The position numbers and the translations under genes were made by a program. This document shows positions 193 to 25,863 of a stretch of 36,829 nt of DNA, one piece after another (within the stretch, counting starts at the first letter, position 1; each line of letters starts with the position of its first letter). The notes under the pieces were generated by a model that saw only the letters and a program-made list of their open reading frames with translations, did no database searches and had not been told where the DNA came from. This DNA is from Pirellulales bacterium (GTDB taxonomy: Bacteria > Planctomycetota > Planctomycetia > Pirellulales > UBA1268): assembly GCA_044370205.1 (NCBI GenBank), contig JBILVW010000002.1, positions 1 to 36,829 of the forward strand. Reading direction: 5' to 3'.

Positions 193-1833
193 CTATTTTT
201 TTCGGACGGTCGTCGTCAGCCGCACGGCCGCCGCCAGTTCGTCCAGCTGGAAGTGCGGCTGCAGGTGCATCAGTACGCGGTAGCCGCCGGCACTACCGGG
301 CTCGTCGCGAACCTCCACCTGCGCGGCCCGCAGCGGCAGCCGGGCCCGCGTTTCCGCCGACGCCCTGTCGTCGGGCGTGACGTAGTCGTGAATCCACTCG
401 TTGAGCGCGTGCTCGAGTTCGTCGGCCGTCGCCACCGACCCCACCTTGTCGCGGGCCATCACCTTGAGATAGTGGGCGAACCGCGACACGCAGAGCATGT
501 ATTGCAGCATGGCCGAAATCCGCGCGTTCGCCGTCGCCTCCGCCCGGTCGTAACGACGGGCGGCGTGCAGTGACTGGTTGGAATGGAAGACCGCGCGGCC
601 ATCGGCCCCCGCCGCCGCCAGCGGAATGAAACCGGCCGCAGCGAGCCGGCGCTCCGTCGCCTCCGTGACCAGCGTCTCGGTCGGGCCGCGACGAAAGGCG
701 AACGGTTCGCTGGCACCGAACGCCTCGATCGGCAGCCCGGCGACGAGCCCACCGCCGGCCGAGCCTCGCGATCCGCCCCGGATGTCGGAGAACCAGCCCG
801 ACCTGCCGAACTCGGCGACCACCACACCGGCAAATGCCCAGGCGGCGCTCGTCCAGAGCCGACGACCGCCGTCCGGCCCATCAGCCTCTTCGCGATAGCG
901 GAATCCCCGCCTGGCCCACGTGCGTTCCGGCTCGCCGGCCGCATCGACGGCGCCGACCCAGCCGTCATACGGCAGCCGCGCCAGCACGCGCGGCAGGGCG
1001 AGCCCCACGAACCGCGATTCCTCCCGGCCCCGGAGCGACCGCCATTTCGTGTACTCGACGCCGGCGTGCAGCGAGTCGAGTGCCGGCGCCTCCTCGAGAT
1101 CGTGAAGCGAATCGATGCCGAGCAGATCGGGCTGCGGAGCGGCGATGAGCGGCGCGAAGCTGGCGGCCGCGATCTCGGCCAGACCAGCGAGCAGATCGAT
1201 GTCGTCGGGATGCTTGCCAAACGCGTAGTCGGCCACGAGCAGCCCGTACGGCATGCCGCCCGCGGTGCCGAACTCGTCCTCGTAGACCTTTCGCCAGACC
1301 GCAGTCCGGTCGAACTCGACCGCCCCGGCGAGGTCGCGAGCCAGATCCCGCTTGCTCGCCGAGAGAATCCGCACCTGCACCCGAGACTGGCCATCGCCGG
1401 CTGCCTCGGCGCTCGCCGCCTCGTCGGCCCGGTTCACAAGCCAGGCGAGCGACCGCCAGGATGCCTCGAGTTGCTGGAACCGCGGGTGATGGAGGATGGC
1501 GTCGAGCTGCCGCCCGATCGCGGCGTCGAGGCTGGCGATATCCACACCCAGCCGCTCCGCGAGTGAGCCACGGGTGATTCGCTCCCCTGCAGCCACCCGC
1601 GCCGATGCCCAGGCCGCAAGGGCCTCCGCAGGCCCACGGGCCGCAAGCAGCCGATCGGCCGATCGGCTGCCGCCCGCTGCCGCTCCCACGCTGGTTCCCA
1701 GCGCCCACTCGACCGCCGACACAGCCTCGGGCCCCGCCGGCCGCGAAGCCGGAAGGATGGATACGGTCTCGGCCGACCGGCTCCCTGCCGACGACGATAC
1801 CGCGACGAATTCCGGCTGGTCCGGCGGACACAT
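193..1833 (-). CDS. tssC: Second, divergent T6SS sheath large-subunit paralog (TssC/VipB family), 546 aa
   Basis: Collinear with the neighbouring canonical TssC. Shared blocks (this protein vs neighbour):
- LDAILHHPRFQQLEASWRSL vs [20 protein letters not shown]
- SKRDLARDLAGAVEFDRT vs [18 protein letters not shown]
- YEDEFGTAGGMPYGLLVADYAF vs [22 protein letters not shown]
- HPDDIDLL, RFVGLALPRVLARLPY, RYDRAEATANARISAMLQYML
The ATG at 1833 has GAAGG 5 nt upstream. The gene starts 37 nt after the tssC stop. Confidence 0.85.
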   Translation of the reverse strand: MCPPDQPEFVAVSSSAGSRSAETVSILPASRPAGPEAVSAVEWALGTSVGAAAGGSRSADRLLAARGPAEALAAWASARVAAGERITRGSLAERLGVDIASLDAAIGRQLDAILHHPRFQQLEASWRSLAWLVNRADEAASAEAAGDGQSRVQVRILSASKRDLARDLAGAVEFDRTAVWRKVYEDEFGTAGGMPYGLLVADYAFGKHPDDIDLLAGLAEIAAASFAPLIAAPQPDLLGIDSLHDLEEAPALDSLHAGVEYTKWRSLRGREESRFVGLALPRVLARLPYDGWVGAVDAAGEPERTWARRGFRYREEADGPDGGRRLWTSAAWAFAGVVVAEFGRSGWFSDIRGGSRGSAGGGLVAGLPIEAFGASEPFAFRRGPTETLVTEATERRLAAAGFIPLAAAGADGRAVFHSNQSLHAARRYDRAEATANARISAMLQYMLCVSRFAHYLKVMARDKVGSVATADELEHALNEWIHDYVTPDDRASAETRARLPLRAAQVEVRDEPGSAGGYRVLMHLQPHFQLDELAAAVRLTTTVRKK

Positions 1834-1870: not shown

Positions 1871-3373
1871 TCACTTCTTCGCAGATGCCGGAATCTTGGC
1901 CACCATCCGCAGCGAGGTGGTGAGTTCCTCGAGCTGCAGCCACGGCCGCAGATACGCGACGGCGTTGTAGCTGCCCGGCGCCCCGGGCACCTCCTCCACC
2001 TTGATCTCCGCCTCGGCCAGCGGGTAACGGGCCTTGATGTCGGCCGACGGCTTCGGATCGGCCGACACGTAGTTGGCGATCCACCGCTTCAGCCAATCCT
2101 CGCAGTCCTGCCGCTCCATGAACGATCCGATCTTGTCGCGGGCGATGCACTTCAGATAGTGGGCGATCCGCGAGGAGGCCATGATGTACGGCAGCCGGGC
2201 CGAGATCGCGGCGTTGGCCGTCGCCTCGGGGCGGTCGTACTTTTTGGCCTTCTGCGCCGTCTGGGCGCCGAAGAACACGGCGTAGTCGGTGTTCTTGTAG
2301 TGGCACAGTGGCAGGAAGCCGAGCTTCGAGAGCTCCGCCTCGCGCCGGTCGGTGATCGCGATCTCCGTGGGGCACTTCAGATCGGTGTCGCCGTCGTCGT
2401 CGGTGAAGATGTGGGCCGGCAGGCCCTCCACCTTGCCACCGTTCTCGGCGCCGCGGATCGCCGTGCACCAGCCCGTCTGGGCGAAGGCGTTGGTGAGCCG
2501 CGTACCCATCACGTAGGCCGTGTTCATCCAGCAGTAGTTGGAGTGGTCGACCTTCTTGGAGTTGCCCTTCGCGTCGAGCTCGACCTCCTCGTAATTGAAC
2601 TCCTCCACCGGCTTGGTCTGGCTGCCGTAGGGGAGCCGGGCCAGCGTCCGCGGCATCGTGAGCACCGCGAACCGGCTGTCGTCGGACTCGCGGAAGCTCC
2701 GCCACTTCGCATAGCTGACGTCGAGGAAGATCTTCTCGAGGTCGCGCGGCTTCGAAAGCTCCTCGAAGCTCTCCATTCCCAAAAGCTCAGCCCCGGCGGC
2801 CGTGACGAATGGGCAGAAGCCGGCCGCCGAAATCTGCGACATCTTCGACAGCAGGTCGATGTCTTCGGGATGGTTGGTGAACTCGTAGTCGCCGATCAGG
2901 GCCGCATAGGGTTCGCCACCCGGCGACCCGAACTCCGCCTCGTAGATCTTCTTGAAGGCCTGGCTCTGGTCGAACTCGACCGCCTTGTCGAGATCCTTGA
3001 ACAGCTCCCGCTTGGACACGTTGAACGCCCGGATCTTGAGCTGGGCGCCCGTCTCGGAGTTCATCACGAGGTGATGCAGGCCCCGCCACGACCCCTCCAG
3101 CTTCTGGAACGAGTCGTGGTGCATGATCGCCGCGAGCTGCTTCGACATCGCGGCATCGATTGCCGCCATGGCCCGGTTGATCGTCTTCGTCACGTTGCGG
3201 TCGAACTGCACCGTACCTTGCAGCGACTGCTCGACGAGAGCGCGGATCAGTTCGTCGCGCCGCGGCTTCTCGACGGCCCGGGGCATCATGCTCGTGATCT
3301 GGTCGAGCAGGCTCGCGCCGGCATCGGTCGTGGTCGTCGCCGCGGCGGATGCGGCCTTCTTTTCAGCGGTCAT
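1871..3373 (-). CDS. tssC: T6SS contractile sheath large subunit TssC (VipB/EvpB family), 500 aa
   Basis: Full-length ORF with classic TssC blocks: [107 protein letters not shown]. It lies directly downstream of tssB. Confidence 0.95.
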
Positions 3374-3415: not shown

Positions 3416-3928
3416 TCACTCGGCGCCGGAATCGGAGAGGCCCATCTCGCCGGCCAGCTTCGCAAGCTGGTCGGTATCCTGCAGGATCTTCTCGAGTTCG
3501 CCTTCGAGCCCGTCGGCCCGATCCACCGCCGACAACAGGTCACGGAGGCGGTTTCGCGTCTCGAGCAGTTTCCGCAACGGCTCCACCTGCTCGACCACGC
3601 GGGACGGCTCGAAGTCTTCCATCGAGGAGAATTTCAGCTTGACCGCCATCTCGCTGCCGTCGCCCGCCAGCGTGTTCTCGGCTCGGAACTCCAGCCCCGG
3701 CGTCATCCGCCGCAACACTTCGTCGAAGTTGTCTCGGTCGATGTTGATGAACTTGCGATCCTTGATCGGCTTGAGCGGCTCCGTCGGATTCCCGGAGAAG
3801 TCGCCCATCACGCCGACGACAAACGGCAGTTCCTTGACGACGGTCGCTCCTTCGGTCTCGACATCGTAGGTGATGTGCACCCGCGGCTTCCGCACGCGGT
3901 TGAGCTTTCCATGAACGGATTCGGGCAT
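3416..3928 (-). CDS. tssB: T6SS contractile sheath small subunit TssB (VipA), 170 aa
   Basis: [46 protein letters not shown]... is the typical TssB N-terminus. I trimmed the track ORF (3416..4009) to the ATG at 3926-3928, which has AAGGGG about 8 nt upstream. Confidence 0.93.
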
Positions 3929-4068
3929 GCTGACGACCCCTTGCGGATGAAAGGACTTGGCGAATGGAAGGCGCCGAGGGCCGACTGGAGGTCGAATACC
4001 CCGATGCACGAGCGGTCACGACACGATGCCTGTGTTCTCCGACCGCGACCGCCGCCGAAGCACGCGGA

Positions 4069-5220
4069 TCAGCCGTCGAACGTCAACCCTGCCATCCGTG
4101 AAAGCGATTGCAGCCCCGACTCTTCCTGGATGAGTTCCCGGTAATAGTCGGCTCGCGGCAGCCGCGCCATCCGAACGACGTTCCTCACTTGAGCCGCTAG
4201 CAGGCTGTGGGGATCGTGACGCTCGAAATAGTCGGCCACGGACTCCAGGGTTCGGAGAACATCATTACGGGATGCCTCCCCCGACACAAGTACCCCCGAC
4301 AGAGGGGATGCGATGGGGGGTCCGCCTGCCGATACCGGCTCCGCCTGAGCCGCGTTCGTCGCCGGGGATTCGGCGGCCAATTCCACCACCGCCGCGGGGG
4401 CGAACGTCCGGAGGGCGTTTTCGCACTCTTCGAACAAATCCCGGAGCGGCAGCGTCGGCAGGATCGCCCGGTCCGCCGAGGCGGTCGCGACTGCATCCGC
4501 AAGCGCCTGCCACGCCCCCTGCGCTGCCTGGATGCCCAGGAATACGTCCTGGAGAAATGCGCGGTCAGTCGTGGCGACACCGGCTTCGAACTGCTGCGGC
4601 GAAGTGCCCCCTCGCTGGAGCGCGGTCTGCAGGCGATCGGGATCGTCCACGCCCCGCAATTCGGTGCTGCTCCGCCAGTGGCACAGCCCGAACCGTTCCC
4701 CGTCACGGCCATCCACCAGCGGCACGTGCAGGATCGCGGGCACGAGCAGCCCCTCCGAGTCTTCTCCCGCCAGTCTCACGAGCGGCAGGGCCCGCTCCAT
4801 GGCGATCGCCCGTTCGTCGGCCGGCCCATCTTCCGGATCGGGAATGGGAAACAGTTCTGACCAGTGGCTCTCGACCATGGCCCGCGCCGCGTCACAGCCT
4901 GCCGCGAGGCCATGAAATCCGCTCGTCCGAGCCAAGGCCTCGATGAACGCCGCGGCCGCACCGAGGTCGTGTGACTGGGTCGTCAGCACGGTCACGCACG
5001 TATCCGCCACCTTCGACCAGACCGGCTCCGCGGCCCAGCGATCTTGGGACGGATCCTTATCGGCATCGCGCTCGATGCGCCGCGCCTCGTCCCGGAGTTC
5101 CCGAATGGAGCCCCACGCCGCGCGGCCCGAATCGTCGACGCGGAGATTCACGCCTGCTGGAGCCGCCTCCGATAGCGGCTGCCGGAGGGCTTCGAGGTCA
5201 ACTGCTTGAACCGCAGGCAT
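4069..5220 (-). CDS. tssA: T6SS protein TssA (ImpA N-terminal domain family), 383 aa
   Basis: The N-terminus LRQPLSEAAPAGVNLRVDDSGRAAWGSIRELRDEARRIER fits the ImpA_N pattern (L..PiS...P.G.dLRyd..f..i.e.r). It sits immediately upstream of tssB-tssC. Confidence 0.8.
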   Translation of the reverse strand: MPAVQAVDLEALRQPLSEAAPAGVNLRVDDSGRAAWGSIRELRDEARRIERDADKDPSQDRWAAEPVWSKVADTCVTVLTTQSHDLGAAAAFIEALARTSGFHGLAAGCDAARAMVESHWSELFPIPDPEDGPADERAIAMERALPLVRLAGEDSEGLLVPAILHVPLVDGRDGERFGLCHWRSSTELRGVDDPDRLQTALQRGGTSPQQFEAGVATTDRAFLQDVFLGIQAAQGAWQALADAVATASADRAILPTLPLRDLFEECENALRTFAPAAVVELAAESPATNAAQAEPVSAGGPPIASPLSGVLVSGEASRNDVLRTLESVADYFERHDPHSLLAAQVRNVVRMARLPRADYYRELIQEESGLQSLSRMAGLTFDG

Positions 5221-6495: not shown

Positions 6496-6531
6496 TGTCA
6501 CTCCTTCGGGCATCAGCGGCCCGTCATCCCC

Positions 6532-8112
6532 TCAGCCGCGGATCATCCGCCACACCAATGCCGCCGCCAGCCCCGCCAGAACGACGCCGCTCACGATCCA
6601 TAACGCCCGCGCCGCCCGCCCCAAGGCCCGATCGGCGGCCTCGGCCTGCTCCGTCCATTCGATGTCGCCCTGTGCGTCGAGCACCTTCTCGAATACACCG
6701 CGAACAAATCCCCTGCGGTCTGCCGCCGCGCCGCACGCCGCGAGGTAGCAGCCTGACAACAGCGGCAGCACGTCGGTCGATTCCCCATCCACCGCCGTGA
6801 AGGCTCGCCGCAGGAGCACCGTGAGCCGCCCCGCCCACTCGGACCGCAGTCTTGCGACGAGGCCCACGAGATCACGATTGCCCGACTCGTCCAGCACGGC
6901 CTTCGCCCGGAGGAGCCGGCCGAGAATCAGATCCTCGACCATGCCGCAGGCGCGGCTGGCGACGGTGCCGAGCTGGTCGTAGCTCGGCGCGGCGCCGATG
7001 GGAAACCGCTGGCCGAGGCGCGACTGCCGCTCACTCGCGGGCATTCGCCGAATCAGCTCCGCGAAGCCCTTGTCTTCCTCCATGCCGGCCACGAGCACCG
7101 TGACCGGCGCCCGCAGGCCCATCCCCTGGCGGATGCCGGCGAGATCGTCACCGAGCGCGCGGCCGAGCGCCTGGGCATTGCCCCCGTCGGCCCGCAGCAG
7201 CGGCGCAGGCACCAACGCGAGCACTCCGTTGAGCGGAGCGAGTCCACCCCGCTCCCGCCGCACCAGCTCGCAGACGTATTTCAGGCGTTGGGACATGCCC
7301 TCCCGCTCGGCGGGCGAAAGCACCGGTGCTCGAACGGCCGCGACCACGGCGCCTGCCGCGGCCTCGGGTGCGATGGCGTCGATCTGGATCGTGGCGTTGA
7401 CGTCGTAGCCGCCAGCGGAAGCGGCCGGCGCTGCCGGCGCCGCGACGGCGGCCCGCGGCTCCGGATCGGTTTCGGCCGGCAGGGCGACGGCCACCGTGCC
7501 CCGGACATCGTCGGCGGCCACCACCGCCTGCGGCTGAGGGACGGCCGCCCGCGCGGTGCCGCGGGCACCTCCACGGCGCGCGACATCGCTCGACTGACAC
7601 GCCGTGGCGAGGCAGATGAATACCGCCTCCGGACCGCCGTAGACGTGGAGCGCCGCGGCTCCTGCCGGGGAGGCCTGCACGGGCAGTTCCACCGGCGGAT
7701 CCGCGAACAGCTGCTCTTCCTGTTCGTCGGAGGCCGATCCGACAACGAGAAACAGCGGTACATCCGCCAGCACGATGCCCTGGCGACGCAGTTCCGCCAG
7801 CGCCGCATTCCAGGCGGCAAGAATGTCTGGCCAGCGGCTTGCATCCCGCTCGAGCCAGAGCCGCGCCGCCTGATGGACGAGCGCCGGCGTCAAGAGCAGG
7901 AGCACCGCCAGCATGGCCAGCTTCCCCGGCCGCCACCAGGCCTGAAACACCTGCCGCTCACCTCCTACGAGCAACACACCGATCGCCAACAGCACCACGA
8001 CGACTTGAAACAAGCCGACCAGCGCCGCGATCCGAGCCGCGAGCGACAACGAGGCCACGGTTTGCGGCACCTGGTTGACGAACCGCAGGGGAGCCATCAG
8101 CCACTGCATCAC
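6532..8112 (-). CDS. tssM: TssM/IcmF-like T6SS membrane protein, N-terminal (TM1-TM2, cytoplasmic domain, TM3) part only, 526 aa
   Basis: - Two N-terminal hydrophobic helices (LAARIAALVGLFQVVVVLLAIGVLLVGG and LAMLAVLLLLTPALV).
- A cytoplasmic region with TssM-like blocks: VPLFLVVGSASDEQE at the Walker-A position, APLNGVLALVPAPLL, and APVTVLVAGMEEDKGFAELIRRM (compare vYvlvTK.D.l.GF.eFf).
- A final helix ALWIVSGVVLAGLAAALVW, then a stop 6 residues later.
It follows tssL, as in canonical clusters. The start is GTG 8112 or ATG 8109. Confidence 0.72.
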   Translation of the reverse strand: MMQWLMAPLRFVNQVPQTVASLSLAARIAALVGLFQVVVVLLAIGVLLVGGERQVFQAWWRPGKLAMLAVLLLLTPALVHQAARLWLERDASRWPDILAAWNAALAELRRQGIVLADVPLFLVVGSASDEQEEQLFADPPVELPVQASPAGAAALHVYGGPEAVFICLATACQSSDVARRGGARGTARAAVPQPQAVVAADDVRGTVAVALPAETDPEPRAAVAAPAAPAASAGGYDVNATIQIDAIAPEAAAGAVVAAVRAPVLSPAEREGMSQRLKYVCELVRRERGGLAPLNGVLALVPAPLLRADGGNAQALGRALGDDLAGIRQGMGLRAPVTVLVAGMEEDKGFAELIRRMPASERQSRLGQRFPIGAAPSYDQLGTVASRACGMVEDLILGRLLRAKAVLDESGNRDLVGLVARLRSEWAGRLTVLLRRAFTAVDGESTDVLPLLSGCYLAACGAAADRRGFVRGVFEKVLDAQGDIEWTEQAEAADRALGRAARALWIVSGVVLAGLAAALVWRMIRG

Positions 8113-10527: not shown

Positions 10528-13500
10528 ATGCAGAAGCCTTCCGGTTCCTCGCGCGGTTCTCGCCCCGGGGAACGTCGGACTCGCTGGAAAGCGAACCCGG
10601 CTCCTGTAGCCGGCCCGCGCTCGCGACTTCCAGCGAGGCTTGCCTGGACCGCCGCGAGCATCGGCCTGATCGCGGCCGTGGGGATGCTCGTTGTTCCGCC
10701 GCTGTTCATGTGGCACGCGGCCGTCGTCCAACTCACCATCGACGAGTACGACCTGGGCGTGCTTTCGGCCCTGCCGTTCAGCGACCGCGACACCGACGCC
10801 GTCGCCGCGGCAGTCGCCGGGCGGCTGGCGCCGACGATGAATCGGTCCGCCCTGCGGCTCGAGCGGAGTGATACGGCGGCGGCGCTCCGCGAACAGCTGC
10901 GACCTCTCGTCGGCGCGCTGCCGCTGCGGCCCCGGGATGTGCTCGTGGCCGTCGTGCGTGCCCAGTGCGGGATCGCCGGTGCGGCCGACGGCGCTCCGTT
11001 TGCCGGTGTGTTCGCCAGCGACGCTCGGCCTGCCGACCCACTGCCCGAGGAACTGGTCGCATGTCGCGACCTCTTCGCCGCATTCGCCGCCGCGCCCAGC
11101 CGCACCACGCTCGTCGCCGTCGACTTCGGTGATCTGCGGTGGGATCCCCGGCTGGCAGCCGCCGGCGGCATCGTGCCCGCCTTGCTCGACGTGGAGTGCC
11201 GGCGTCCGCTCGCCGAGGATGCGGCCGGCGGCCGGCGTGACCGCGACTGCTGGGTGCTGGGCTCGCACGACACGCTCGAGTTTTCGGCGGTCAATCTGGC
11301 CGCCCGACGCAGTCTCTTTTCGCGGGCGATCGAACTTGCGCTCGCCGGCGCCGCCGACGACCCCCGGTGGGCCGCGGCGGGCGGCGATGGCGATGGCGTC
11401 GTCGAACTCGACGAACTGGCACGATTCACGGCGGCGTGGACGAGCCGCTGGGCGCGGGAGGAAAGCGCCGGCGAGTGGGATCAGCGCCCCGTGCTGTGGA
11501 AGCTCGGCACGGGCCGCGTGCCGCTCGACCAGGTGCCGCCCGGCATCGCCATCATTCGCACCACCGACCGGCGGCCACCGGTCGTGGCGATCGTCGGCAG
11601 CGAAGGGCAGGCCGAGGCGGACCGCGCGGCCGCCGAACCGGCCGCACAGTCCGCGTCAGGTGAGCCGGCGGCGGCTCCTGCCGAGGCAGCCCCGGCCACG
11701 TCGACTCAGCCCACGCCCCAGCCACAGGTCGTGCAGCCCGATGTGCGCGCGATCATCGCTCGACTCGCCGCCGCATCCGAGTCGGAGCCGAGCCCGCTCG
11801 ATTCCATTCCGCATCTCTGGCGAGACGTCGATTCCCTCTCCGCGGCGGTGTCGGCCACGGTGCCGGATGGATCGACGCTGGCCGAGCGCGCCGCACTCCT
11901 CGACCGTCGGCTCGGGATTGGTCTCGATCGGTTCGTGGCCGGGGCCGCCAGTGCCGGTGATGGCGCGGCCGAGGTCACGAAACAGCTCGTGGCGGCCTCG
12001 CGCGCGGTGAGTGCCGCAGGCTTTTCAGCAGCCTGGCGAAATGCGCCGCCCCCGGTGCGGGCAGCACTCGCCTCCCGCAACCGCGCGGTCGAGCTGGCCT
12101 GGTCGACGGCGACGTGGCTCGGGCAGGCTTCGGGCGGTACGCGGGCCTCGACGCATCTGCGAGGCCTGAACCTGCTGCTCGAACGGATCAGGGCGCTGAA
12201 TGCGGCGCTCGACCGCCTGGCCGACCGCCGCGCGGACGGCGACGACGGCTTCGCGGACCTCGACCGCCAGCGAGTCGCCTTGGGGGCGGCCGTCGGCGAA
12301 CTCGCCGCGGCAGTCGATGCCTCGATCGAGGAGTTGCTCGAACGGTTTGCCCGGCCCGGCCCCCGGCCGGTGGCCGAGTTGCGTTGGCTGGCAGCGTCGC
12401 GACTCCCGTCGGCGGCCCAGTTCTCCCGCATCAGCACCGCCCTCGCGCCGCCGGCTCCTCCCGCAACCGGGTCCACTGGTGGGCCGCAAGCAGTCGACCA
12501 GGCGCTGGAATTGAAGGAGCCGGCGCCCGCCGTGCCCGCGAACCGCCTCATCGACCGACTGGCGTGGCGCAACCTCGCGGATCATGCCGATGCGTTTCGG
12601 CTCATGCTGCAGTCGTTCGGACCGCTCGGCCCACAGTTCGAGACACTCGTCGCCGGCGTCGGCACTGCGATCTCTGGATTGACCGCGGCTGCCGAGGATC
12701 CGCCGCGGGCGGCCGACGCGGCGGCAAGGCTCGGCCTGCGGATGGCCGCAGCGCTGGCTGCAGTGCCGGGCGAGATCGATGTGGTGACTCGGAGCCGGTC
12801 AGGCGCGGCCGGCGACCCGTCCCGCATGATCGATGCCTTGACGCGGCTTGCCGATCCGCGTGACGCCACGCGCATCCGCCCTGATGCCCGCGGCTGGGCT
12901 CCGGCTGTCCGCCCCCAGACCGTGCTCGCGCTCAACGTGACGGCCCGCGAGCTCACACTCGACGGCGACCGCCCGCAACGGGTCGCAGTGGCACTCGCAT
13001 CGGCCGCTCCGTTCCCGCCGGCCGCAGCCCTGCGGCTGGACTTCGATCCTGCGCTCATCCGAGTGGTGGCCGTCGGTGGCGACTCGATCACTCCGGGCAC
13101 GGCGTTCTCCCCCGGGGCCCTGGGCATGCGCGATCGCGGCCTGTTCGACGTCACGGCGCGCGGTCGGGCAGCGGGTGGCGCAGACGGTGGCCCCCCGACG
13201 GCCACGCTCACCTGCACACTCGAGGTCGGCCGACGCCGCGAACGAGCCTCGATCACGTTCGATCTGCCCGTTGTCGAGCGGATAGCGATCGCCGTCCGCG
13301 GACCGGCAGGCACGGTCGAAAAAGGTGTGCCCGATGCGTGGCTGACCATGCCGCTCGATCCGCTGACCACCGGCAGCGCGGAAGGGAACCGCAGCATCTC
13401 GCTTCGTCCGTTCCCGGGGCACACGACGGGCTGGGAGCTTTCGCTCGTGAACCGGACGAAACACGCTCGGCGGGTGAGCATCGAATTGGTTTCCTTCGCC

Positions 13501-15276
13501 CCGGATCCCGCAACTGGAGACCCCGGTTTCGGAGCTGCGGAAGCATGGCCGCGGTGCCGCGAAGCGCTTGCCCAGCGCCGCCGTCTCCCCGCGGAAGCGC
13601 GGGTCGTGGCCGCATGTGCGGCACTCGATTTGCCCGCGTCGGACCGGCATGTCGCCGTGCCGCTGCAGCCGACGACCGCTCCCGCACCGGCGGACGGTGC
13701 CGCGCCGGCGCGGGACACGGCAAAGGAGGCCGGCACGCCGCTCGCTTCGACACTTGCGCTCGTGGTACGGGATCTCGTCGAGCCTCCCGCAGCCGACTCG
13801 CCACCGCCGGCGGCTCCACTCTCTTCGACAACGCCACGCACGTGGGCATGCCGCCTCGACCTCGTGCCCCAGCATCCGCGCCGGTATCTCGACACCGCGG
13901 CGCGATGGTCGAGCGACGACCGCTCGATCGCGATCTCGGTCCGACCTCGCGGCGGCGATACCCGCCTGCTGCCGGCGCTCGGCGCGCGAGCTCAGGCAGC
14001 GCCGCTCGAGGCACGGGTCGCCCGCGACCAGCCGCTCGCGATGCGCAAACTGCAGGCTCTGGTCACTGCCGCACGGCCGGCCGACGAACTGCGGGCCGTC
14101 TGGAACGGCGTGGACGAGGCGTCCGCCTGGCTGGCGGTCGATATCGACGGCTACCCCAGGGCCCGCGTGTTCCGGGTGGAATGCGGTCCGGCAGCCTCGG
14201 GCACCGAGCAGCGGCCCCAGGATGATTGGCGGCATGTCGAACTGCTGAGCCCCCGCCGCGATGACGAAGCGTTTCGGGCGCCTGCGGCCACCATTCCGCT
14301 GGTTCTCGCGGCGGATGGCCCGCCCGATGCGTTCGGCACCGGCGGCGGCAGGATCGAGGTGACCGTGCGGCAGGAAGGGGCGCTCGCGGGAGGCTTGCCC
14401 GACCCGGGCCGAGTGGTCTGGTCGGCGGCCACCGATCGGCAGGCGTCGTACGTTCTCGAACCCGCGGAACCGCCGCTCGCGCTGGCCGTTCGTACGACCG
14501 TCTCCGACTGGAACATCGCACTTACCGACGTGGGCTTCCAGGATGTCGATGTCGTCGTCGAGGCGCGGCTGATGCTGCCTGGGGAGGCGGCCCCGCGATC
14601 CGCCCGACGCACGATCGTGCTCGATGGGTCGCCCCCTCGCCTCATGTCGCCACCACGGGCGGTCGTCCACAAGGGCCGTGAGGCCGAGATCGTTGTCGAG
14701 CCCGAGGACGGCCCCGCGTTCAATTCGCTCGTCGGAGGTCGCCGTGCCGGATCCAGCGGCATCGAGCGGGTCGAGTGGGGCCTCGACGTCAAGGGCAACG
14801 GGGCGCCCGAGAAGTGGGAGGTCGCAACCGGCTTGGGCGGCAGTCGCTTCCGCATCGGAGTGCCCACCGAGGCGCTGTCGCTGGGCCGGCACCGACTTCT
14901 CATGAGGGCCTTCGACCGCGTCGGCTTCGAGAGCCGGGCGGCGAGTTGTGATCTGGAGGTCATCCCACCGCCACCGCCCCCCGCCGAGCCGGAGAAGCCC
15001 AAACCCGAGACGCGGAACGCCATTCATGGCCGTGTCACCCTCGACGGGCAGCCGCAGGGGGGCATCACCGTGGCGATCGAGGGGCCAGGCGCGCCGGGTC
15101 CGACAACCAGCGGTCCGGACGGCAGTTTCTCGTTCTCCGGACTCGATCCGGGCGAGTATCGACTCTCCGTCCGCGAAACGACCGTCCGCAACCGCCTCTA
15201 CTCCGCTGGCCCGGTGTCAGCCGCGGTCACTCCGCCCCCCGCTCAGCCCACGGCGGTCGAACTTCCGCTGAAGTGA
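10528..15276 (+). CDS. Giant (1582 aa) single-pass membrane protein. Architecture: Arg-rich N-tail, TM helix, degenerate caspase-like (Peptidase_C14-like) domain lacking the His/Cys dyad, long Ala-rich helical region, beta-rich region, C-terminal CarboxypepD_reg-like domain.
   Basis: - The ATG at 10528 gives MQKPSGSSRGSRPGERRTRWK... followed by the TM helix AWTAASIGLIAAVGMLVVPPLFMW. The track start at 10342 lies in the control region.
- The post-TM domain aligns by eye with the downstream giant protein and ends in GDGDGVVELDELARF.
- The C-terminus IHGRVTLDGQPQGGITVAIEG...TSGPDGSFSFSGLDPGEYRLSV is a textbook carboxypeptidase-regulatory-like fold motif.
- GC3 is high throughout. Confidence 0.8.
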   Translation: MQKPSGSSRGSRPGERRTRWKANPAPVAGPRSRLPARLAWTAASIGLIAAVGMLVVPPLFMWHAAVVQLTIDEYDLGVLSALPFSDRDTDAVAAAVAGRLAPTMNRSALRLERSDTAAALREQLRPLVGALPLRPRDVLVAVVRAQCGIAGAADGAPFAGVFASDARPADPLPEELVACRDLFAAFAAAPSRTTLVAVDFGDLRWDPRLAAAGGIVPALLDVECRRPLAEDAAGGRRDRDCWVLGSHDTLEFSAVNLAARRSLFSRAIELALAGAADDPRWAAAGGDGDGVVELDELARFTAAWTSRWAREESAGEWDQRPVLWKLGTGRVPLDQVPPGIAIIRTTDRRPPVVAIVGSEGQAEADRAAAEPAAQSASGEPAAAPAEAAPATSTQPTPQPQVVQPDVRAIIARLAAASESEPSPLDSIPHLWRDVDSLSAAVSATVPDGSTLAERAALLDRRLGIGLDRFVAGAASAGDGAAEVTKQLVAASRAVSAAGFSAAWRNAPPPVRAALASRNRAVELAWSTATWLGQASGGTRASTHLRGLNLLLERIRALNAALDRLADRRADGDDGFADLDRQRVALGAAVGELAAAVDASIEELLERFARPGPRPVAELRWLAASRLPSAAQFSRISTALAPPAPPATGSTGGPQAVDQALELKEPAPAVPANRLIDRLAWRNLADHADAFRLMLQSFGPLGPQFETLVAGVGTAISGLTAAAEDPPRAADAAARLGLRMAAALAAVPGEIDVVTRSRSGAAGDPSRMIDALTRLADPRDATRIRPDARGWAPAVRPQTVLALNVTARELTLDGDRPQRVAVALASAAPFPPAAALRLDFDPALIRVVAVGGDSITPGTAFSPGALGMRDRGLFDVTARGRAAGGADGGPPTATLTCTLEVGRRRERASITFDLPVVERIAIAVRGPAGTVEKGVPDAWLTMPLDPLTTGSAEGNRSISLRPFPGHTTGWELSLVNRTKHARRVSIELVSFAPDPATGDPGFGAAEAWPRCREALAQRRRLPAEARVVAACAALDLPASDRHVAVPLQPTTAPAPADGAAPARDTAKEAGTPLASTLALVVRDLVEPPAADSPPPAAPLSSTTPRTWACRLDLVPQHPRRYLDTAARWSSDDRSIAISVRPRGGDTRLLPALGARAQAAPLEARVARDQPLAMRKLQALVTAARPADELRAVWNGVDEASAWLAVDIDGYPRARVFRVECGPAASGTEQRPQDDWRHVELLSPRRDDEAFRAPAATIPLVLAADGPPDAFGTGGGRIEVTVRQEGALAGGLPDPGRVVWSAATDRQASYVLEPAEPPLALAVRTTVSDWNIALTDVGFQDVDVVVEARLMLPGEAAPRSARRTIVLDGSPPRLMSPPRAVVHKGREAEIVVEPEDGPAFNSLVGGRRAGSSGIERVEWGLDVKGNGAPEKWEVATGLGGSRFRIGVPTEALSLGRHRLLMRAFDRVGFESRAASCDLEVIPPPPPPAEPEKPKPETRNAIHGRVTLDGQPQGGITVAIEGPGAPGPTTSGPDGSFSFSGLDPGEYRLSVRETTVRNRLYSAGPVSAAVTPPPAQPTAVELPLK

Positions 15277-15519
15277 CGGCGCAGCAGCCGAAATTCTCCA
15301 GTGGCACGGCAGGCGGGGCGCTCAATCCGCTCCAGCCGCTACACATTCCCCACGACACCCCACGAAAGAGTGGGTTTCTCCCGTAGAATTCCTCAGATTC
15401 CGCGAGGGACGTCGGGAATGGGGGTCGATGACTCTCGCGAGGGGGTCACGGACGTCCCGGCACCCGCTCCGTGTCGTTTCGCAACCACAGGCTTCGTTCC
15501 GCTTACGAGGATCTCGATC

Positions 15520-16791
15520 ATGGACCGTTCTCTCCGCCGCTTTGTGTCAGCGGCGGCCTTCGGCTGTCTCTTACTGCCATCGGCCGCTGCGTTTGCTCAG
15601 GCGCCCGCGGCCCCGCCGCAGACGTTCTGGAACTGGATGGGGGTTCCCAAGAATCCGCTCGCGGGCTGCATCAATCGGGGGGGCAACTTCCCCACCTGCG
15701 AGAAGGTGCCGCCGCTGAAGGCGATCGCCGACCCGGCGAATCTGGCCTCGAAGAACCCCGCCATCAAAAAGGCGGCCGAAATCAAGGCCGAGGAGGATCT
15801 CGCCGCGCAGAAGATCAAGGCGATCAAGTACCTCGCAGAAATCGGCTGCGGCGGCTGCTATCCGGGTGTTGCCGAGGCCCTGGCGGCGGCGCTCGATGAC
15901 TGCACCGAGGCGGTGCGATACGAGGCCGTAAAAGCGATCCTGGCGGCGTCTGCATGCGGCCAGAACGACTGCGTGAAGAAGTGCGTCCGCAAGTCGAAGA
16001 CGTGCAAGGAGGCGATGTGCGATTCATGGATGGGCTGCATGAAGCGGACGTGTGCCACCATGCATCTCATGTGCGGCAAGCCCGGTCCCGATGGCGTGAC
16101 TCTGAAGTCGAAACTTCCCGGCTACGGCTGCGGCGCGGGTGGCTCCTGCCAGCCCGGCCGCTGCGCATGCGGCGACGGCAACTGCTGCACGTCACAAATC
16201 CTCAACAAGCTCTCCACGATGGCCTTCGAGAAGGACGATCGGGGCTGCTGGAAGGAGCCGAGTCCCCGCGTGCGGGCGATGGCCCGGCAGGCGTTGCGGG
16301 CCTGCGGACCGAACGTGCGTCCCTACACGGAGGCGCCGGTTCCCATGCCCGAGGAAGTGCCCGCCACGCCCGATGCGGACACGAAGCCCGAGCCCAAGGA
16401 GCAGGCCCCCGAGCCGAAGCGGGAAACCGCCCCTGAAAACCGTGAGGCAGCTCCCGGTTCGTCCGCCACCTCGGTGCTCCCGCCCGAGACCGAGTCGGCC
16501 GACGTCGCGGTGCCGGAGGCCGTCGCGACGCTGCCCGAGGCCGAATCTGTCGATCCCGTTGTCGCGGATCCGGTGATCGCCGAAGACGTGGTCGCCGACA
16601 CTACCACCACGGAAGCCGCGGCTGCCCCGGTGGCTCCGGCTCCGGAAGATCTGTTCCCGACGCCGACGGTCGCGGCGCCGCAGACGATTCGTCCGGCCGC
16701 TACGAAGCCGGTGCGGCCGCGCATGGCCCGGCGCGGTGTGGTCATCCCGACCGCTGCGTTCTTCTCGGGCGATCGCCCGGCGAGCCGCTGA
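15520..16791 (+). CDS. Secreted Cys-rich protein with a HEAT-like repeat segment and an acidic Pro/Glu/Ala-rich C-terminal tail, 423 aa
   Basis: - The ATG at 15520 has AGGA about 10 nt upstream.
- Signal peptide MDRSLRRFVSAAAFGCLLLPSAAAFA/QAP.
- HEAT-like segment KIKAIKYLAEIGCGGCYPGVAEALAAALDDCTEAVRYEAVKAIL.
- About 21 Cys in roughly 240 residues of the mature part (CGGC, CxxxC and NCC clusters).
- Low-complexity tail PEEVPATPDADTKPEPKEQAPEPKRETAPE... Confidence 0.8.
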   Translation: MDRSLRRFVSAAAFGCLLLPSAAAFAQAPAAPPQTFWNWMGVPKNPLAGCINRGGNFPTCEKVPPLKAIADPANLASKNPAIKKAAEIKAEEDLAAQKIKAIKYLAEIGCGGCYPGVAEALAAALDDCTEAVRYEAVKAILAASACGQNDCVKKCVRKSKTCKEAMCDSWMGCMKRTCATMHLMCGKPGPDGVTLKSKLPGYGCGAGGSCQPGRCACGDGNCCTSQILNKLSTMAFEKDDRGCWKEPSPRVRAMARQALRACGPNVRPYTEAPVPMPEEVPATPDADTKPEPKEQAPEPKRETAPENREAAPGSSATSVLPPETESADVAVPEAVATLPEAESVDPVVADPVIAEDVVADTTTTEAAAAPVAPAPEDLFPTPTVAAPQTIRPAATKPVRPRMARRGVVIPTAAFFSGDRPASR

Positions 16792-16837
16792 AGCCCAATG
16801 CGGAGGGATCGCCCTCTCCGAGGGTGGTCCCTCCGTC

Positions 16838-19800
16838 ATGGGCGGTATACTCCCGCTCATGACTGCATCTGATCGATCCGCTGGCGGCGGCCGGCGGGAT
16901 GCCTGGCGAGGGAAAGGGGGCGGACACCGCCCGTCATCGCCCTCCGTCGTGAACCCGCGGTGGCGTGGCCGCCACCCCTCGGCCAACGACGTCGAGTACG
17001 TGAGCCGACAGCGGCGGCTCGCGGCATGGCGGTTCGGGTTGAGCGCCGCGGCGTTGGCGCTCGTCGTCCTGCTGGTCGCGCTGCTCCTGGGTATGAAGCG
17101 GCAGGTGCCACTGATCGCGGGGGTCGTGTGGTCGTATCGCACGCCCCTCGGCCCGTTGCCGCTGGCCGAAGAGGATCGCCGCCTGGTGAACGGACTGTCG
17201 CGGGCCGGCACACTCGACCCCGGCACGGCCCGCGTCATCGACATCTCGACGAGCCTGCAAGACGCCGATGCCGACCAGTTCGCGGCCGCGTGCTGCCGCC
17301 CTCTCCCGGGCCTCAGGCCCGGTGGGCCGCGGGGCGACATGTTGATCGTCCACCTGACGGCGATCGGGGGCGTCGACCGTGACGGACGCGCCTGTCTCGT
17401 CATGCCAAAGGCGAACGCCGACATCGCCACGGCCGACGAGCGCTGGCTGAGGGTCGATGCCCTGCTCGCACGACTGACTGCTGCGCGGCCGGCAAACACA
17501 GCGCTGCTCGTGGTGCTCGACGCCTGCCGCTCCGCCCACGCCGAGACGCTCGGAGTGCTCGACGGCACATTCGCTGCGGCAGTGGCCGTCGATGTGAAGG
17601 CCGCGAATCACGACCGGCTCTGGGTGCTGACGTCGGCCGGCCCCGGCGAGACGGCCTGCGCCTCCGCGGTTGACGGCGCCTCGCTGTTCGCCGCCGCGTT
17701 CGCCGACGGGATCGAGGGATCAGCGGATGCGGCGCCGTCGGGCGATGATGATGGACGAGTGGAGTTGGCCGAGTTGGCCGCCTACCTGCGCGACGAGGTC
17801 GATCGTCGCGCCCTCGTGCATCACGGCAGACATCAGCGACCACTCATGGTGCCGTCGCCGGCCGAAGCGAACGCCGAAGTCGCGGTCGCTTGGGCGGTGC
17901 GGAAGACGCCCACGGCTCGATCGATCGCGTCGGCAACACTCGCATCGGCAATGTCCGTATGGCTCACGGATCGTTGGGCGGCCGCCGAGTCTTTGCGCGA
18001 CCGGTGCGTGCACGAACAGCCGCTGGCCTGGTCCGGATACGAATCGCTCCTCCTGCGGGCGGAGCGGCTCGCGGCGGCCGGCGCCGCGGCCGAGGCCGAA
18101 CTCAAGGAGACGAGAACGGCCGTCGAGGTGACAGAGCAGTTGCTGCGGCAGCCGCTCGTCGCCGGCGGCAACACGCTGCCTGGCGTGAGACTCGCGCGGC
18201 TCGCCGGCGGCGCAGCTCCGACGGCTGATCCTGCGTGGCTCGTCAAGCTGGAAGACTGGTCGCGAAGCGTTTCGACGCCCGGGGGTGAGACCGGCGATGA
18301 AGCGGCTCCACCGCCGTGCCTCGATGCGGGCCAATGGCGCTGCCGGGCCGCCGCAGCTTGGGAGCGGTTCGTGTCGTTGACGAAGGCCGGGGCCCCGATC
18401 GACCGCAGCGGATGGCAGCGTTGGAACGACCTGCTTGGGCCACCGCCCGCCGGCGTTGGACTCATTCCCGGCGAGGTGCAGGCAGCCCGCTTGCTGGCCT
18501 CGGGTATCGACGAGTCGGCTTGGAGTTCGGCGCCGACGCTGATGGGCCGCGTGGCGGCTCTGGCCGACGAAGCCGCCTTGGCCATGCTGCCTGACGACGT
18601 TCGCGCCGATGCGATCGTCGAGGCGGTGACGCCGACCCGCGACGCCGATGCGGCACGGCGGACCGCATTCGATCTCACGGTCGTGGGCGATGACATCGCG
18701 TTGGCCGGCGCCGCGAAAGCGGCCCAAGCCGCAGGCGACCAATATGGCCAGGCCGCCAACCTGGGAGCTCTGGCATCGGACGCCTGGAGGTTGCTCGATC
18801 AGGTGCGGGCGGAATGGCCATGGCTGGCACTCTGGACTGCCGCCGACACGGCCGCTTCGCTGGAGCGCCCGCCCACGGGCGGCCTGGCGACCCCCGGCGC
18901 AGCCGTCGACTGGAAAAACCTCGCCCCGGCAGTGGCCCGCCTGGAGACCGCCCTGACGGCAAGCGTGGAGCAGCGAGGAGGCCAAGCCACGGTCGCCATG
19001 ATTCGGGAGGCCTTCCGCGAAGCGGACGGCTTGTTCTCGATCATTCGCGGCAACTATGACGACGCGTGCGACACGCTGGCAGAACGCGCCGCCGGCAATG
19101 CCACGACGCTCGCAGCCATTCGGGCGGCGCTCGCGACGCCGCTCGTCGCCGGTGAACGGCGAATGCGGCTCCTGGAACGTGCCGGCCTGCTCGCTGCCGA
19201 ACTGCACGCCCAGCCCGTGCCGACGGCCCGGGACCAGGTTGCGGCGGCCGATGCCCCGCCGATCGGTGCAGCCGGCGCATGGGTGGCGTGGAGCGGCGGC
19301 GCGCATCCCTTCGTCGCCGCGCTCGGTCTGGCGGATGAGCATGCCAGTCGGCCACCGGCGTCGGCGGCCGATCTGGCCGTTGCCGCCGGCAGACAGGGTC
19401 TGGCAATCCGTACCGCGGCAGCGCAGCTGCGGACAGTGTCGCGGGAGACGACGGCCGCCGGCGAGACGACCATCGCCGACAGGACAGCCAACGCGTCCAC
19501 CGCCCGCCGACTGGCGCCGCTTGGCCCGGCATTCGCGGTCGAGGGCCTGGCACTCGAGGCGGAAGCCTCTCCGATCACGCTCCAACTCGGCCATGCCTGG
19601 CATGTGCGGCTCATCCGTGTCGCTTCGACCATTCTCGATGATTTTTTCGGCGGCGCAGGGCCGGATGATCCGCCCTGGTTCGCGCCCGCGGCCGCAGCGT
19701 GCCTCGAGCAGGGGGCGGCATTCGGCTCCGGAGCGGCATTCGATCGCGTCTCGGGCCGCCTGGAGATGCTCCGCCTGGCACCGCAGGAATGGGCCGTGCT

Positions 19801-21919: not shown

Positions 21920-22134
21920 TGTCCGACGAGATGTCGGCTAGGCCTTGGTTTTCTGACATCCGTTACGATACACCGCTCTCTTTTTGTTCATTCCAAACCG
22001 CTGCCGTAGGAGTGCGAGTGTGGATCGGAAGATCAAGCGGAACGACGAGGCATGCCGGGTTTTCTTCCGCCACCGATGACCTCGGCCAGCGCCGAAGCGA
22101 CGGGCCACACCCCGACGGCGCGGCCGCCCGAGCC

Positions 22135-22412
22135 ATGGCTGCGCGGCACCAAGGCCGCGTGGAGCTCGTGCCGACCGACGAGGGAGAAGGGCGGGGCCGG
22201 TTCCGGGCCGCGGTGCTCGGCCTGCTCGAGGGCCTCGCCGACGACGCCTGGGTCTATTGGTGCATCGACGACAAATACCCGATGTGGCTCGACCACGCCG
22301 CGGCCGAGGACTGCCGGAGGGCTTCGCGATCGGCCGCCAGCGGCTCGTCGTCGGCCGCCGGCCGACGCTCGCCGGCCGGCTTCTCGATGCGATCGCAGGC
22401 TTCGGCGGCTGA
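22135..22412 (+). pseudogene. Possible frame-switched gene remnant or small unknown gene (about 92 codons across two frames)
   Basis: Frame 1 from the ATG at 22135 reads plausibly (GRVELVPTDEGEGRGRFRAAVLGLLEGLADDAWVYWCIDDKYPMWLDHAAAED) with high GC3 up to about 22310. After that the +2 frame reads plausibly (LPEGFAIGRQRLVVGRRPTLAGRLLDAIAGFGG*) and stops at 22410-22412, 3 nt before the convergent sulfotransferase stop. Frame 1 continues as Ser/Ala/Arg-rich text overlapping that gene by 90 nt. Confidence 0.25.
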
Positions 22413-22415
22413 GAC

Positions 22416-23147
22416 TCACGCCGTCCGCAGGGCATCGAGCCCCGCGGTGATCGCTTCCGGGCTCGCACCGCCCCAGAGCCTGTGCCACGCCCGCGCCGCG
22501 AGATAGCTGCCTGAGCGTGTCGAGCGGCTGCGCCGCATCCGCGGATCGCGGCGATCGATGAGCGGCCGGCCCACGAACCGCTCGAGCCGGGCCAGTTCGG
22601 ACGAGTCGTCCATGAGCCTCGCATAGTCGAGCACGAGACATGGCTGCGTCGTGCGGTCGATGGCAGCCAGGATGGCCGAGTTGTGGGCGCACCACTGTGG
22701 AAGGCACCGCCGCACCGCCTTCAGCCGCCGCCGCACCGAGGCCGACCGCCAGTAATGAGCCCACGCCTCCTCCGGCCTCCGGAACACGGCGATCACGCGA
22801 TGGGCCGGCAGTTCCTTCGCCCAGAGGTCGTAGGTGAGGCAGGACCGCGGATCCTTGAAGCCCCAGTCGGCATGCCGCGCGGAGCATGAGGCGATGATGT
22901 CGCGCATCCGCCAGCGCTCGGCATCGCCGCATCGCCGCCGATCACCCTGGGTGTCGAGGCTGAAGGCGCCGGCCGAGCCCAGGATCTCTTGGTTGAGCTC
23001 CCGCGTCGATTCTCGCTCCCACTTGTTGCCGTCGTCGTAGCCACCCTGCGGATCGACCTCATCCACCATGGCGATGCCGGCGTGGTGGAGCAACTCCGAC
23101 ACGAGCGTCGTGCCCGATTTGTGCATCCCGAGCACGACGTGGATCAT
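22416..23147 (-). CDS. Sulfotransferase family protein, 243 aa
   Basis: MIHVVLGMHKSGTTLVSELL carries the PAPS 5'-phosphosulfate-binding loop (G.hKSGTT) at the very N-terminus. WGFKDPRSCLTYDLW fits the second sulfotransferase block. I trimmed the track ORF (to 23579) to the ATG at 23145-23147. Confidence 0.78.
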   Translation of the reverse strand: MIHVVLGMHKSGTTLVSELLHHAGIAMVDEVDPQGGYDDGNKWERESTRELNQEILGSAGAFSLDTQGDRRRCGDAERWRMRDIIASCSARHADWGFKDPRSCLTYDLWAKELPAHRVIAVFRRPEEAWAHYWRSASVRRRLKAVRRCLPQWCAHNSAILAAIDRTTQPCLVLDYARLMDDSSELARLERFVGRPLIDRRDPRMRRSRSTRSGSYLAARAWHRLWGGASPEAITAGLDALRTA

Positions 23148-23331
23148 CGCGGGCCTCTCGACGCATCGGCACATCCTGGCAAGCTGCGAGGAATACCAAA
23201 CCCGGGCAGGTGGCGGCGAGGCCAATCGTCCGGGTTGACCACGAGGCCGGCACAAACCGCGGTTGCCGGGTGAACCAGCGGCCGGTATCGTCCTCAGTTC
23301 CACATGCCTGCGTCCGCTTCGCGGTGAACCC

Positions 23332-24450: not shown

Positions 24451-24456
24451 CGGCGG

Positions 24457-25575: not shown

Positions 25576-25625
25576 GAATCGAGAATAGAGCCCTGCACGG
25601 CAAGCTGCATACGGTGGACCCGTGA

Positions 25626-25760: not shown

Positions 25761-25863
25761 GAACCATCGCGACCAGGGGAGCGTCTCGCCCGGTGGATGC
25801 TGCCGGCAGTAAGCTGTGGCAGCCGACGCGAATGGCAGCGGCGTGGATCGTGCACGGAGGCGA

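Follow-up and report, generated by a model that had tools for sequence, protein, structure and literature searches.

Introduction

In type VI secretion systems (T6SSs) of the canonical subtype, T6SS-i, the membrane complex consists of TssJ, TssL and TssM, for example in Sci-1 of enteroaggregative Escherichia coli (PMC10433429, PMC6517824), and the TssM periplasmic domain, alone or together with TssJ, is taken to be their universal trans-envelope channel (PMC10433429). According to a 2023 preprint, an outer-membrane anchor is needed by every T6SS except T6SS-iv. Here a T6SS locus of a Pirellulales bacterium (Planctomycetota) was analysed in which the TssM homologue stops directly behind its third transmembrane (TM) helix, so that the periplasmic domain is missing. 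The locus lies in a stretch of 36,829 nucleotides (contig JBILVW010000002.1 of assembly GCA_044370205.1, positions 1 to 36,829 of the forward strand), called the window throughout; an earlier annotation of the same DNA, made by a model from its letters and open reading frames (ORFs), is referred to as the sequence-only reading.

Several described systems depart from the canonical complex. The T6SS of Agrobacterium has no TssJ and carries TssC40 and TssC41 (PMC3702570); Walker A and further nucleotide-binding motifs are important for Agrobacterium TssM to bind and hydrolyse ATP, and the need for Walker A is disputed in Edwardsiella (PMC3346141). In Acinetobacter, TssJ is missing and is compensated by TsmK and an extra TssM domain (PMC10564176). 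T6SS-iii (Bacteroidota) and T6SS-iv (Amoebophilus) are made without TssJLM (PMC10433429). In Citrobacter rodentium, a premature stop in tssM is rescued by transcriptional frameshifting, and both a short and a full-length form are made (PMC4256274). For planctomycetes, Rhodopirellula baltica was only listed as having a T6SS cluster by Boyer et al. 2009. In the literature searched, in which few subscription journals were covered, no description was found of a planctomycete T6SS membrane complex, of a short TssM or of T6SS accessory proteins with von Willebrand factor A (vWA) domains, and a 2026 review of T6SS accessory factors makes no mention of Planctomycetes, of such a truncation or of von Willebrand domains.

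A TssM homologue without periplasmic domain

The ORF of the TssM homologue occupies positions 6532–8112 of the minus strand (526 amino acids (aa) when read from 8112); homologues begin at the ATG at 8109, which gives a protein of 525 aa, here called short TssM. Three TM helices were located by hydropathy scan, TM1 at residues 31–49, TM2 at 65–83 and TM3 at 503–521 (ALWIVSGVVLAGLAAALVW), and only the five residues RMIRG stand between TM3 and the stop codon. The sequence-only reading was right that the protein ends immediately after TM3; its count of six residues behind the helix has to be changed to five. Its spacing of 36 nt to the next gene is obtained if that gene begins at the ATG at 6495, and becomes 18 nt with the ATG at 6513.

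The sole Pfam domain of the protein is IcmF-related_N (PF14331) at residues 277–459 (65.8 bits with a cutoff of 25, E = 4.9e-18). The NCBIfam model for TssM, TIGR03348, is matched over model positions 192–363 of 1168 only (21.8 bits vs a cutoff of 388), and residues 202–303 of Azospirillum TssM are matched by hhalign (E = 5.6e-5), so that the identification as TssM (TssM/IcmF, COG3523) made in the sequence-only reading is borne out by profiles. In the family alignment the short proteins are collinear from end to end with the first ~480–505 residues of TssM from Azospirillum (1187 aa) and Rhizobium (1201 aa), a stretch which comprises TM1, TM2, the cytoplasmic domain and TM3 and behind which canonical TssM runs ~700 residues further. 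Like canonical TssM, the short protein thus has a TM1–TM2 hairpin, a cytoplasmic domain with IcmF-related_N and TM3, and its gene adjoins tssK and tssL; the periplasmic IcmF-related (PF06761) and IcmF_C (PF06744) domains are absent, as are the P-loop nucleoside triphosphatase (NTPase) motifs.

For these motifs the definitions GxxxxGK[ST] (Walker A), hhhhDxxG (Walker B) and (N/T)KxD were used (PMC3346141). The canonical Walker A sequence LIGPPGSGKTT aligns with VVGSASDEQEE of the short TssM, in which Lys and Thr are absent; the degenerate Walker A that the sequence-only reading had seen in VVGSASDEQE does stand opposite LIGPPGSGKT of Azospirillum and Rhizobium TssM. The canonical TKLD (the TKxD guanine-specificity motif) aligns with AGME, and the alignment of Walker B is ambiguous. 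The losses of the P-loop and of TKxD are conserved family-wide. Since it is disputed whether Edwardsiella TssM depends on Walker A, the lost P-loop is less unexpected than the truncation.

Between the degenerate Walker B region and IcmF-related_N, the short TssM contains a variable, Ala/Pro-rich low-complexity insertion of ~90 residues (at ~180–270), which is absent in canonical TssM and far shorter in three family members (P0022, P0028 and P0030).

Conservation of the short form

In a word-indexed search, 31 close clusters with 46–100% identity to the short TssM were recovered, all with lengths of 468–566 aa and all ending a few residues past TM3, with ~60 invariant columns in the alignment. 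In a HMMER search with a profile of the short TssM against 1.84 billion representatives of 50%-identity clusters, 677 of the 1,477 matches found at E ≤ 1e-3 had an E-value of 1e-30 or lower; the best 150 of these 677 strong matches were all 451–695 aa long, and the match ran to the C-terminus. Relatives thus share the shortness that had been read from the single sequence. Every organism label that was recovered belonged to Planctomycetota (Pirellulales, Planctomycetaceae, a bin labelled Ca. Kuenenia, and Rhodopirellula), and members are named 'type VI secretion protein IcmF/TssM N-terminal domain-containing protein' at NCBI. All related loci keep the gene order TssK–TssL–TssM of the window. 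No remnant of TssM was found downstream of the stop, where a conserved small protein and a sigma factor are encoded. The short TssM is, with near certainty, a genuine conserved form.

Search for the periplasmic domain and for TssJ

The Pfam families T6SS_SciN/TssJ, IcmF-related and IcmF_C had no match in any plausible ORF of the window, in agreement with the sequence-only reading, which had listed no TssJ there. The two giant proteins encoded beside tssK, the secreted protein H496 (both described below) and the small ORF behind tssM gave no match to IcmF or TssJ families, either in Pfam, even at E ≤ 10, or in NCBIfam. Nor was TssJ or a periplasmic IcmF domain present among the genes called in related contigs in the ~10 kb that flank the short TssM on both sides. 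A hidden Markov model of the periplasmic domain was built from Azospirillum and Rhizobium TssM; nothing below E = 1 was obtained with it in the six-frame ORFs of the window and of the related loci L001–L014, so that a separately encoded domain, for which the sequence-only reading had proposed to look, did not turn up there. Sequence searches of the PDB with the profile of the short TssM and with both giants gave no matches. The T6SS locus exits the left end of the window, and the absence of TssJ is therefore valid only for the window and ~10 kb of the related loci. A simple split gene nearby is excluded by the lack of a periplasmic-domain match in the window and the related loci.

TssL, sheath proteins and the Azospirillum-type locus

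TssL of the window (204 aa) stops one residue past its TM helix and carries no OmpA or other periplasmic extension as in evolved TssL, which agrees with the missing peptidoglycan-binding extension reported in the sequence-only reading. TssL of Azospirillum has 524 aa, with an OmpA domain at 409–507. TssC1 is 70% and TssB 65% identical to the Azospirillum argentinense protein, whereas only ~29% is reached by TssK, by TssL (over 133 residues) and by TssM (over 103 residues). With the sheath at 65–70% and TssK, TssL and TssM at ~29% or barely alignable, the membrane-proximal part is the remodelled part of the system. TssC1 is 82–95% identical among close relatives and 72% identical in the distant locus L012; the second paralogue, TssC2, is far more divergent, with ~38% identity to TssC1.

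A tandem TssC pair is also found in Azospirillum and Agrobacterium (TssC41/TssC40), by which the locus belongs to that T6SS-i clade. The locus on plasmid p3 of A. argentinense (L015), the nearest proteobacterial counterpart with the most similar sheath, contains the full-length TssM, tandem tssC, TagF, TagH and a Ser/Thr kinase and phosphatase. Common to the T6SS-i of the Agrobacterium/Azospirillum type and the planctomycete loci are tandem TssC, ImpE/TagJ (in relatives of the window) and the lack of an annotated TssJ. Full-length TssM, TssL with OmpA, TagF, TagH/Fha, PpkA and PppA occur only in the Azospirillum type, whereas the planctomycete locus alone has giant bitopic proteins and a secreted Cys-rich protein, joined in one variant by a FliA-like sigma factor. 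In L015 (positions 18447–19079 and 36465–38561) a DUF6931 protein is encoded beside tagH, as well as a cytoplasmic caspase-SH3-MORN protein, and no tssJ is annotated. Derivation of the caspase-like domain of the planctomycete giant from this Azospirillum T6SS 'caspase family protein' was considered and rejected (hhalign probability 0.7%).

Giant and secreted proteins encoded beside tssK

Beside tssK, and divergently from the minus-strand tss block, three genes are transcribed on the plus strand (10528–21919); they encode the giant proteins G1644 and G1727 and the secreted protein H496. These conserved genes were overlooked in the sequence-only reading and are the best candidates for parts of a different membrane complex. 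In every lineage with enough flanking sequence, TssK–TssL–short TssM is preceded by a homologue of G1727 and/or G1644, and H496 also has a homologue there in all cases with a long enough flank (window, L001/L009–L011, L002, L003/L004/L021, L005–L008, L012, L013/L014, L019/L020 and L026/L028). This synteny persists at ~30% TssM identity. In the reverse test, homologues of G1727 were found to adjoin TssK, one of them at only 31% identity; in one locus with a longer flank they mark the locus edge. G1644 co-occurs with the sigma factor and the small ORF in one locus variant, and all three are absent from the other.

Each giant has a single hydrophobic helix ~100 residues into the ORF and ~40–65 residues from the probable start, and this single TM helix on the N-terminal side places ~1,500–1,600 residues of each protein in the periplasm. 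In G1727 (family length ~1,650 aa) a cytoplasmic tail of ~65 aa is followed by the TM helix, a pseudo-caspase domain, an all-alpha domain of ~600 aa, a beta domain, a vWA domain with a metal ion-dependent adhesion site (MIDAS) and beta-sandwich domains. In G1644 a short N-terminal tail and the TM helix are followed by a caspase-like region that is degenerate, by a long helical stretch and, at the C-terminus, by a CarboxypepD_reg beta domain. The two giants were rejected as close paralogues: only a local match of ~80 residues was found between them, in the caspase-like region (E = 2e-4), and they are at most distant relatives.

AlphaFold models were calculated from sub-alignments of the G1727 family for residues 1140–1727 (predicted local distance difference test (pLDDT) 84.5) and 121–1150 (pLDDT 81.7, predicted template modelling score 0.83). 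The C-terminal model shows the vWA domain and beta-sandwiches; its best PDB matches by Foldseek are the pilus-tip adhesins PitA and SpaC, besides many vWA domains (E from 7.7e-13 to 1e-5). The Pfam VWA match in G1727 of the window is weak; none of the 21 family sequences departs from DxSGS, T and D at the MIDAS positions. The N-terminal ~270 periplasmic residues have a caspase fold (MALT1, metacaspases and CHAT; Foldseek E ~1e-3; weak NCBIfam match to NF047832). The position of the caspase His is Ile in G1727 and varies among I, H, F, Y and V in homologues, and four homologues carry Ala in place of Cys; with the catalytic His variable or lost, most members have a pseudo-protease here. In this domain (residues ~125–390) Cys is mostly kept, and the full His–Cys pair survives in a few homologues, which might still be active proteases. 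The all-alpha domain of ~600 residues had no Foldseek match in the PDB, no TssM chain was listed among the Foldseek matches of the G1727 models (121–1727) in the PDB, and none of the partner proteins showed sequence likeness to the TssM periplasmic domain.

H496 (family length ~400 aa) and eight homologues all start with a Sec signal peptide (cleavage in the window protein at …AAFA|QA) and have a Cys-rich core in common, which is strongly conserved and gives a weak HEAT-like match. In the H496-like protein of Rhodopirellula, a lipobox-like LSTIGC is found in the signal peptide. The Rhodopirellula module (L013/L014, GCA_002901265.1, 87–11962) consists of this protein, the vWA giant, TssK, TssL and a short TssM of 653 aa; it adjoins a cluster of OEP, resistance-nodulation-division adaptor and peptidase M50 genes, and the ~10 kb fetched to its left and to its right contain no sheath genes. 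In L026 (433–19542), at ~30% TssM identity, the vWA giant, an 813-aa protein with a caspase-like region and a CarboxypepD_reg protein are encoded, and beside TssK a 1,630-aa protein with two protein-kinase domains, which hints at phosphorylation-based control in that lineage.

Layout of the locus and other features of the window

The T6SS locus spans positions 193–21919 of the window, which has a G+C content of ~70% (table 1). As in canonical T6SS-i, TssL and the TssM homologue are encoded beside TssK; the sheath (TssB and two TssC), TssA and TssK are present in the window, and TssE, TssF, TssG and ClpV, together with TagJ, were found in the fetched flanks of related loci.

Table 1. Features of the T6SS locus with their positions in the window and the evidence for each assignment.
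Feature	Position	Strand	Evidence
TssC2, divergent second TssC paralogue	193–1833	-	Pfam VipB and VipB_2; TIGR03355
TssC1, sheath large subunit	1871–3373	-	Pfam VipB and VipB_2; 70% identity to Azospirillum TssC
TssB, sheath small subunit	3416–4009	-	Pfam T6SS_VipA; 65% identity to Azospirillum TssB
TssA	4069–5220	-	Pfam ImpA_N; TIGR03363, 176.6 bits, exceeds cutoff
FliA/WhiG-like sigma-70 factor, 236 aa	5348–6058	-	Pfam Sigma70_r2 and r4; between tssM and tssA
Small soluble ORF, ≤152 aa	6055–6513	-	ATGA overlap with sigma factor gene (translational coupling)
Short TssM, 525 aa	6532–8109	-	Pfam IcmF-related_N; TM scan; family alignment
Short tail-anchored TssL/DotU, 204 aa	8152–8766	-	Pfam DotU; NCBIfam IV_VI_DotU; 204-aa homologues
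TssK, baseplate subunit, 490 aa	8790–10262	-	Pfam T6SS_VasE, E = 8.9e-80; homologues 490 aa
Giant G1644, ~1,580 aa, single-pass	10528–15276	+	TM scan; local similarity to G1727; synteny
Secreted Cys-rich H496, ~420 aa	15520–16791	+	Sec signal peptide; weak HEAT-like repeat; synteny
Giant G1727, 1,693 aa, single-pass	16838–21919	+	TM scan; AlphaFold; Foldseek; motif columns; reverse synteny

The sigma factor matches NCBIfam TIGR02479 with E = 1.1e-28, under the cutoff of the model. The small ORF that overlaps its gene had no match in a Pfam scan and is conserved in nine related loci (L001, L002, L009–L012, L019, L020 and L022); it may encode an anti-sigma or partner protein of the sigma factor. 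The pair is found only in the locus variant which also carries a G1644-like giant, and the sigma factor with its coupled ORF suggests a dedicated transcriptional switch for the T6SS. An ORF at 21919–22506 was dropped as a gene because it looks non-coding.

Just past the T6SS locus (22416–26550), a sulfotransferase-family gene and a gene for a 697-aa GT4 glycosyltransferase, the N-terminal extension of which (~330 aa) has no Pfam match, were annotated. A tRNA-Val gene (GAC) lies at 26851–26924 on the minus strand, flanked by a UDP-sugar epimerase-like gene and the gene for threonyl-tRNA synthetase. The right half of the window, outside the T6SS locus, has a housekeeping character (threonyl-tRNA synthetase, glutamine synthetase, ROK regulator and aldose epimerase).

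Discussion

The locus differs from canonical T6SS-i in that the channel-forming, TssJ-binding domain of ~700 aa is missing from TssM, no TssJ was found, the NTPase motifs are lost and TssL has no periplasmic part. The conclusion of the sequence-only reading, a membrane complex built differently from the TssJLM paradigm, is supported by the truncation, the motif losses, the bare TssL and the lack of a separate periplasmic domain in the locus. On balance we favour, as the probable reading, a non-canonical membrane complex with a base of short TssM and TssL and a periplasmic part supplied by the giant and secreted proteins encoded beside tssK. Short TssM and the 204-aa TssL would most likely form an inner-membrane base to which TssK and the baseplate dock, with the GTPase-like module of the short TssM kept as a non-catalytic scaffold. 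The roles of the ~700-aa periplasmic domain of TssM, of TssJ and of the OmpA domain of TssL would be taken by non-homologous proteins encoded divergently from tssK, namely the bitopic protein of ~1,650 aa, the secreted Cys-rich protein of ~400 aa and, in one variant, the second bitopic giant. These substitutes could tether the inner-membrane base to the wall and the outer membrane at sites where the periplasm is narrow enough to fire across. The cytoplasmic membrane of planctomycetes invaginates, and their periplasm is variable and sometimes greatly enlarged (PMC5394234); a tail on the inner membrane would then reach the outside only where both membranes are held together, which is a plausible rationale for such a tether.

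Of the systems compared, that of Acinetobacter (TsmK, TslA and TagX; PMC10564176) is alike in that lineage-specific envelope proteins from the same cluster make up for a missing envelope component. In Acinetobacter TssM the periplasmic domain is retained and a C-terminal extension is added, whereas planctomycete TssM loses the whole domain and the candidate substitutes are unrelated giants. T6SS-iii and T6SS-iv are alike in performing contractile secretion without a TssJLM trans-envelope complex; they have no TssL or TssM and their sheath and baseplate are divergent, whereas TssL, the N-terminal half of TssM and a typical T6SS-i sheath are kept in the planctomycete locus. With a DotU/TssL and a TssM N-terminal homologue present and a sheath 70% identical to that of proteobacterial T6SS-i, the locus does not belong to T6SS-iii. 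A shortened TssM is also made in Citrobacter, but there the full-length protein is made and needed as well and the downstream sequence encodes the C-terminal domain; in planctomycetes no TssM sequence lies downstream, and no form other than the short one is conserved. None of the compared systems is a T6SS-i that keeps TssL and the N-terminal half of TssM and yet lacks the periplasmic domain. It is this missing domain that is really unusual, since absence of TssJ and a weak dependence on Walker A were already known (PMC3702570, PMC10564176, PMC3346141).

Several points weigh against the proposed complex. The tie of the partner proteins to TssL, TssM and TssK is drawn from gene order and domain architecture. 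On the cytoplasmic side G1727 has a short tail of low conservation, and direct contact with the cytoplasmic base is therefore not evident. Periplasmic vWA domains occur in T6SS regulators and kinases such as PpkA, so that the partners could be sensors and not structural parts. No Hcp or VgrG was seen in the fetched flanks of related loci, which leaves activity of the system unproven. A gene for the periplasmic TssM domain or for TssJ could lie at a distance, beyond the window and the flanks that were scanned. A competing reading is a minimal anchor, in which short TssM and TssL do no more than fix the baseplate to the inner membrane, the spike would cross the wall and outer membrane with no periplasmic conduit of its own, and the neighbouring proteins are regulators, sensors, adhesins or accessory proteins. 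It is favoured by the short tail of G1727 and by the lack of similarity, in fold or sequence, of the giant to the TssM periplasmic domain or to TssJ, and there is precedent in T6SS-iv, which functions without TssJLM (PMC10433429), and in several systems in which TssJ is dispensable or absent (PMC3702570, PMC10564176, bioRxiv 10.1101/2023.12.21.572528). The strict synteny of the partners in very divergent lineages, even in the locus with no sheath genes in its fetched flanks, the bitopic topology, by which ~1,600 aa are placed in the periplasm, and the invariant MIDAS, which suggests a conserved binding role tied to the TssK–TssL–TssM module, speak for partners with a part in the complex, and the minimal anchor is considered rather unlikely, although it is the strongest competitor.

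A periplasmic TssM domain, perhaps with TssJ, encoded elsewhere in the genome with a signal or anchor of its own is quite improbable. The scans covered the window and the flanks of related loci, the left part of the T6SS locus continues beyond the window, and two TssM length variants cooperate in Citrobacter (PMC4256274), all of which leave some room for it; but no such ORF exists in any frame in the window or in the ~10 kb flanks of 14 related loci, genes for T6SS membrane complexes are normally clustered, and the truncation falls at the same point in hundreds of clusters with no remnant behind it. An artefact or pseudogene, arising from a sequencing error in the stop, a frameshift or decay of the locus, has nothing in its favour except the unusual length and can hardly be credited. 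The 31 close clusters and the best 150 of the 677 strong matches, drawn from many separate assemblies, share this end point; the third-position G+C content of the ORF is 0.83, a typical coding value here; and the ORFs downstream encode the conserved small protein and the sigma factor, not out-of-frame TssM. Identical length and end point across hundreds of clusters mean that the stop is neither a sequencing error, a doubt which the sequence-only reading had raised, nor the mark of a pseudogene.

Bacteroidota T6SS-iii uses lineage-specific membrane proteins in place of TssJLM. The non-canonical complex favoured here could likewise define a distinct T6SS subtype of Planctomycetota, in which giant bitopic proteins with pseudo-caspase, alpha-solenoid and vWA parts, together with the secreted Cys-rich protein, would have replaced TssJ, the TssM periplasmic domain and the TssL anchor wholesale as a new trans-envelope module, fitted to a variable and at times much enlarged periplasm, and would be a second solution, evolved independently beside TssN–R of Bacteroidota, for coupling a contractile tail to the envelope of a diderm; this wider proposal is tentative, with the chances for and against it close to balanced and slightly on the side of doubt. 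For the annotation of genomes, the finding means that cutoffs set for full-length TssM miss the short form (TIGR03348, with the scores given above), so that automated T6SS calls in Planctomycetota may score these systems as incomplete. For the biology of the phylum, a phylum-wide clade is described which has a canonical sheath and baseplate and yet no periplasmic domain of TssM, no TssJ and no periplasmic domain of TssL, and concrete candidate genes are supplied for the missing part: the vWA giant, the secreted Cys-rich protein and the second giant.

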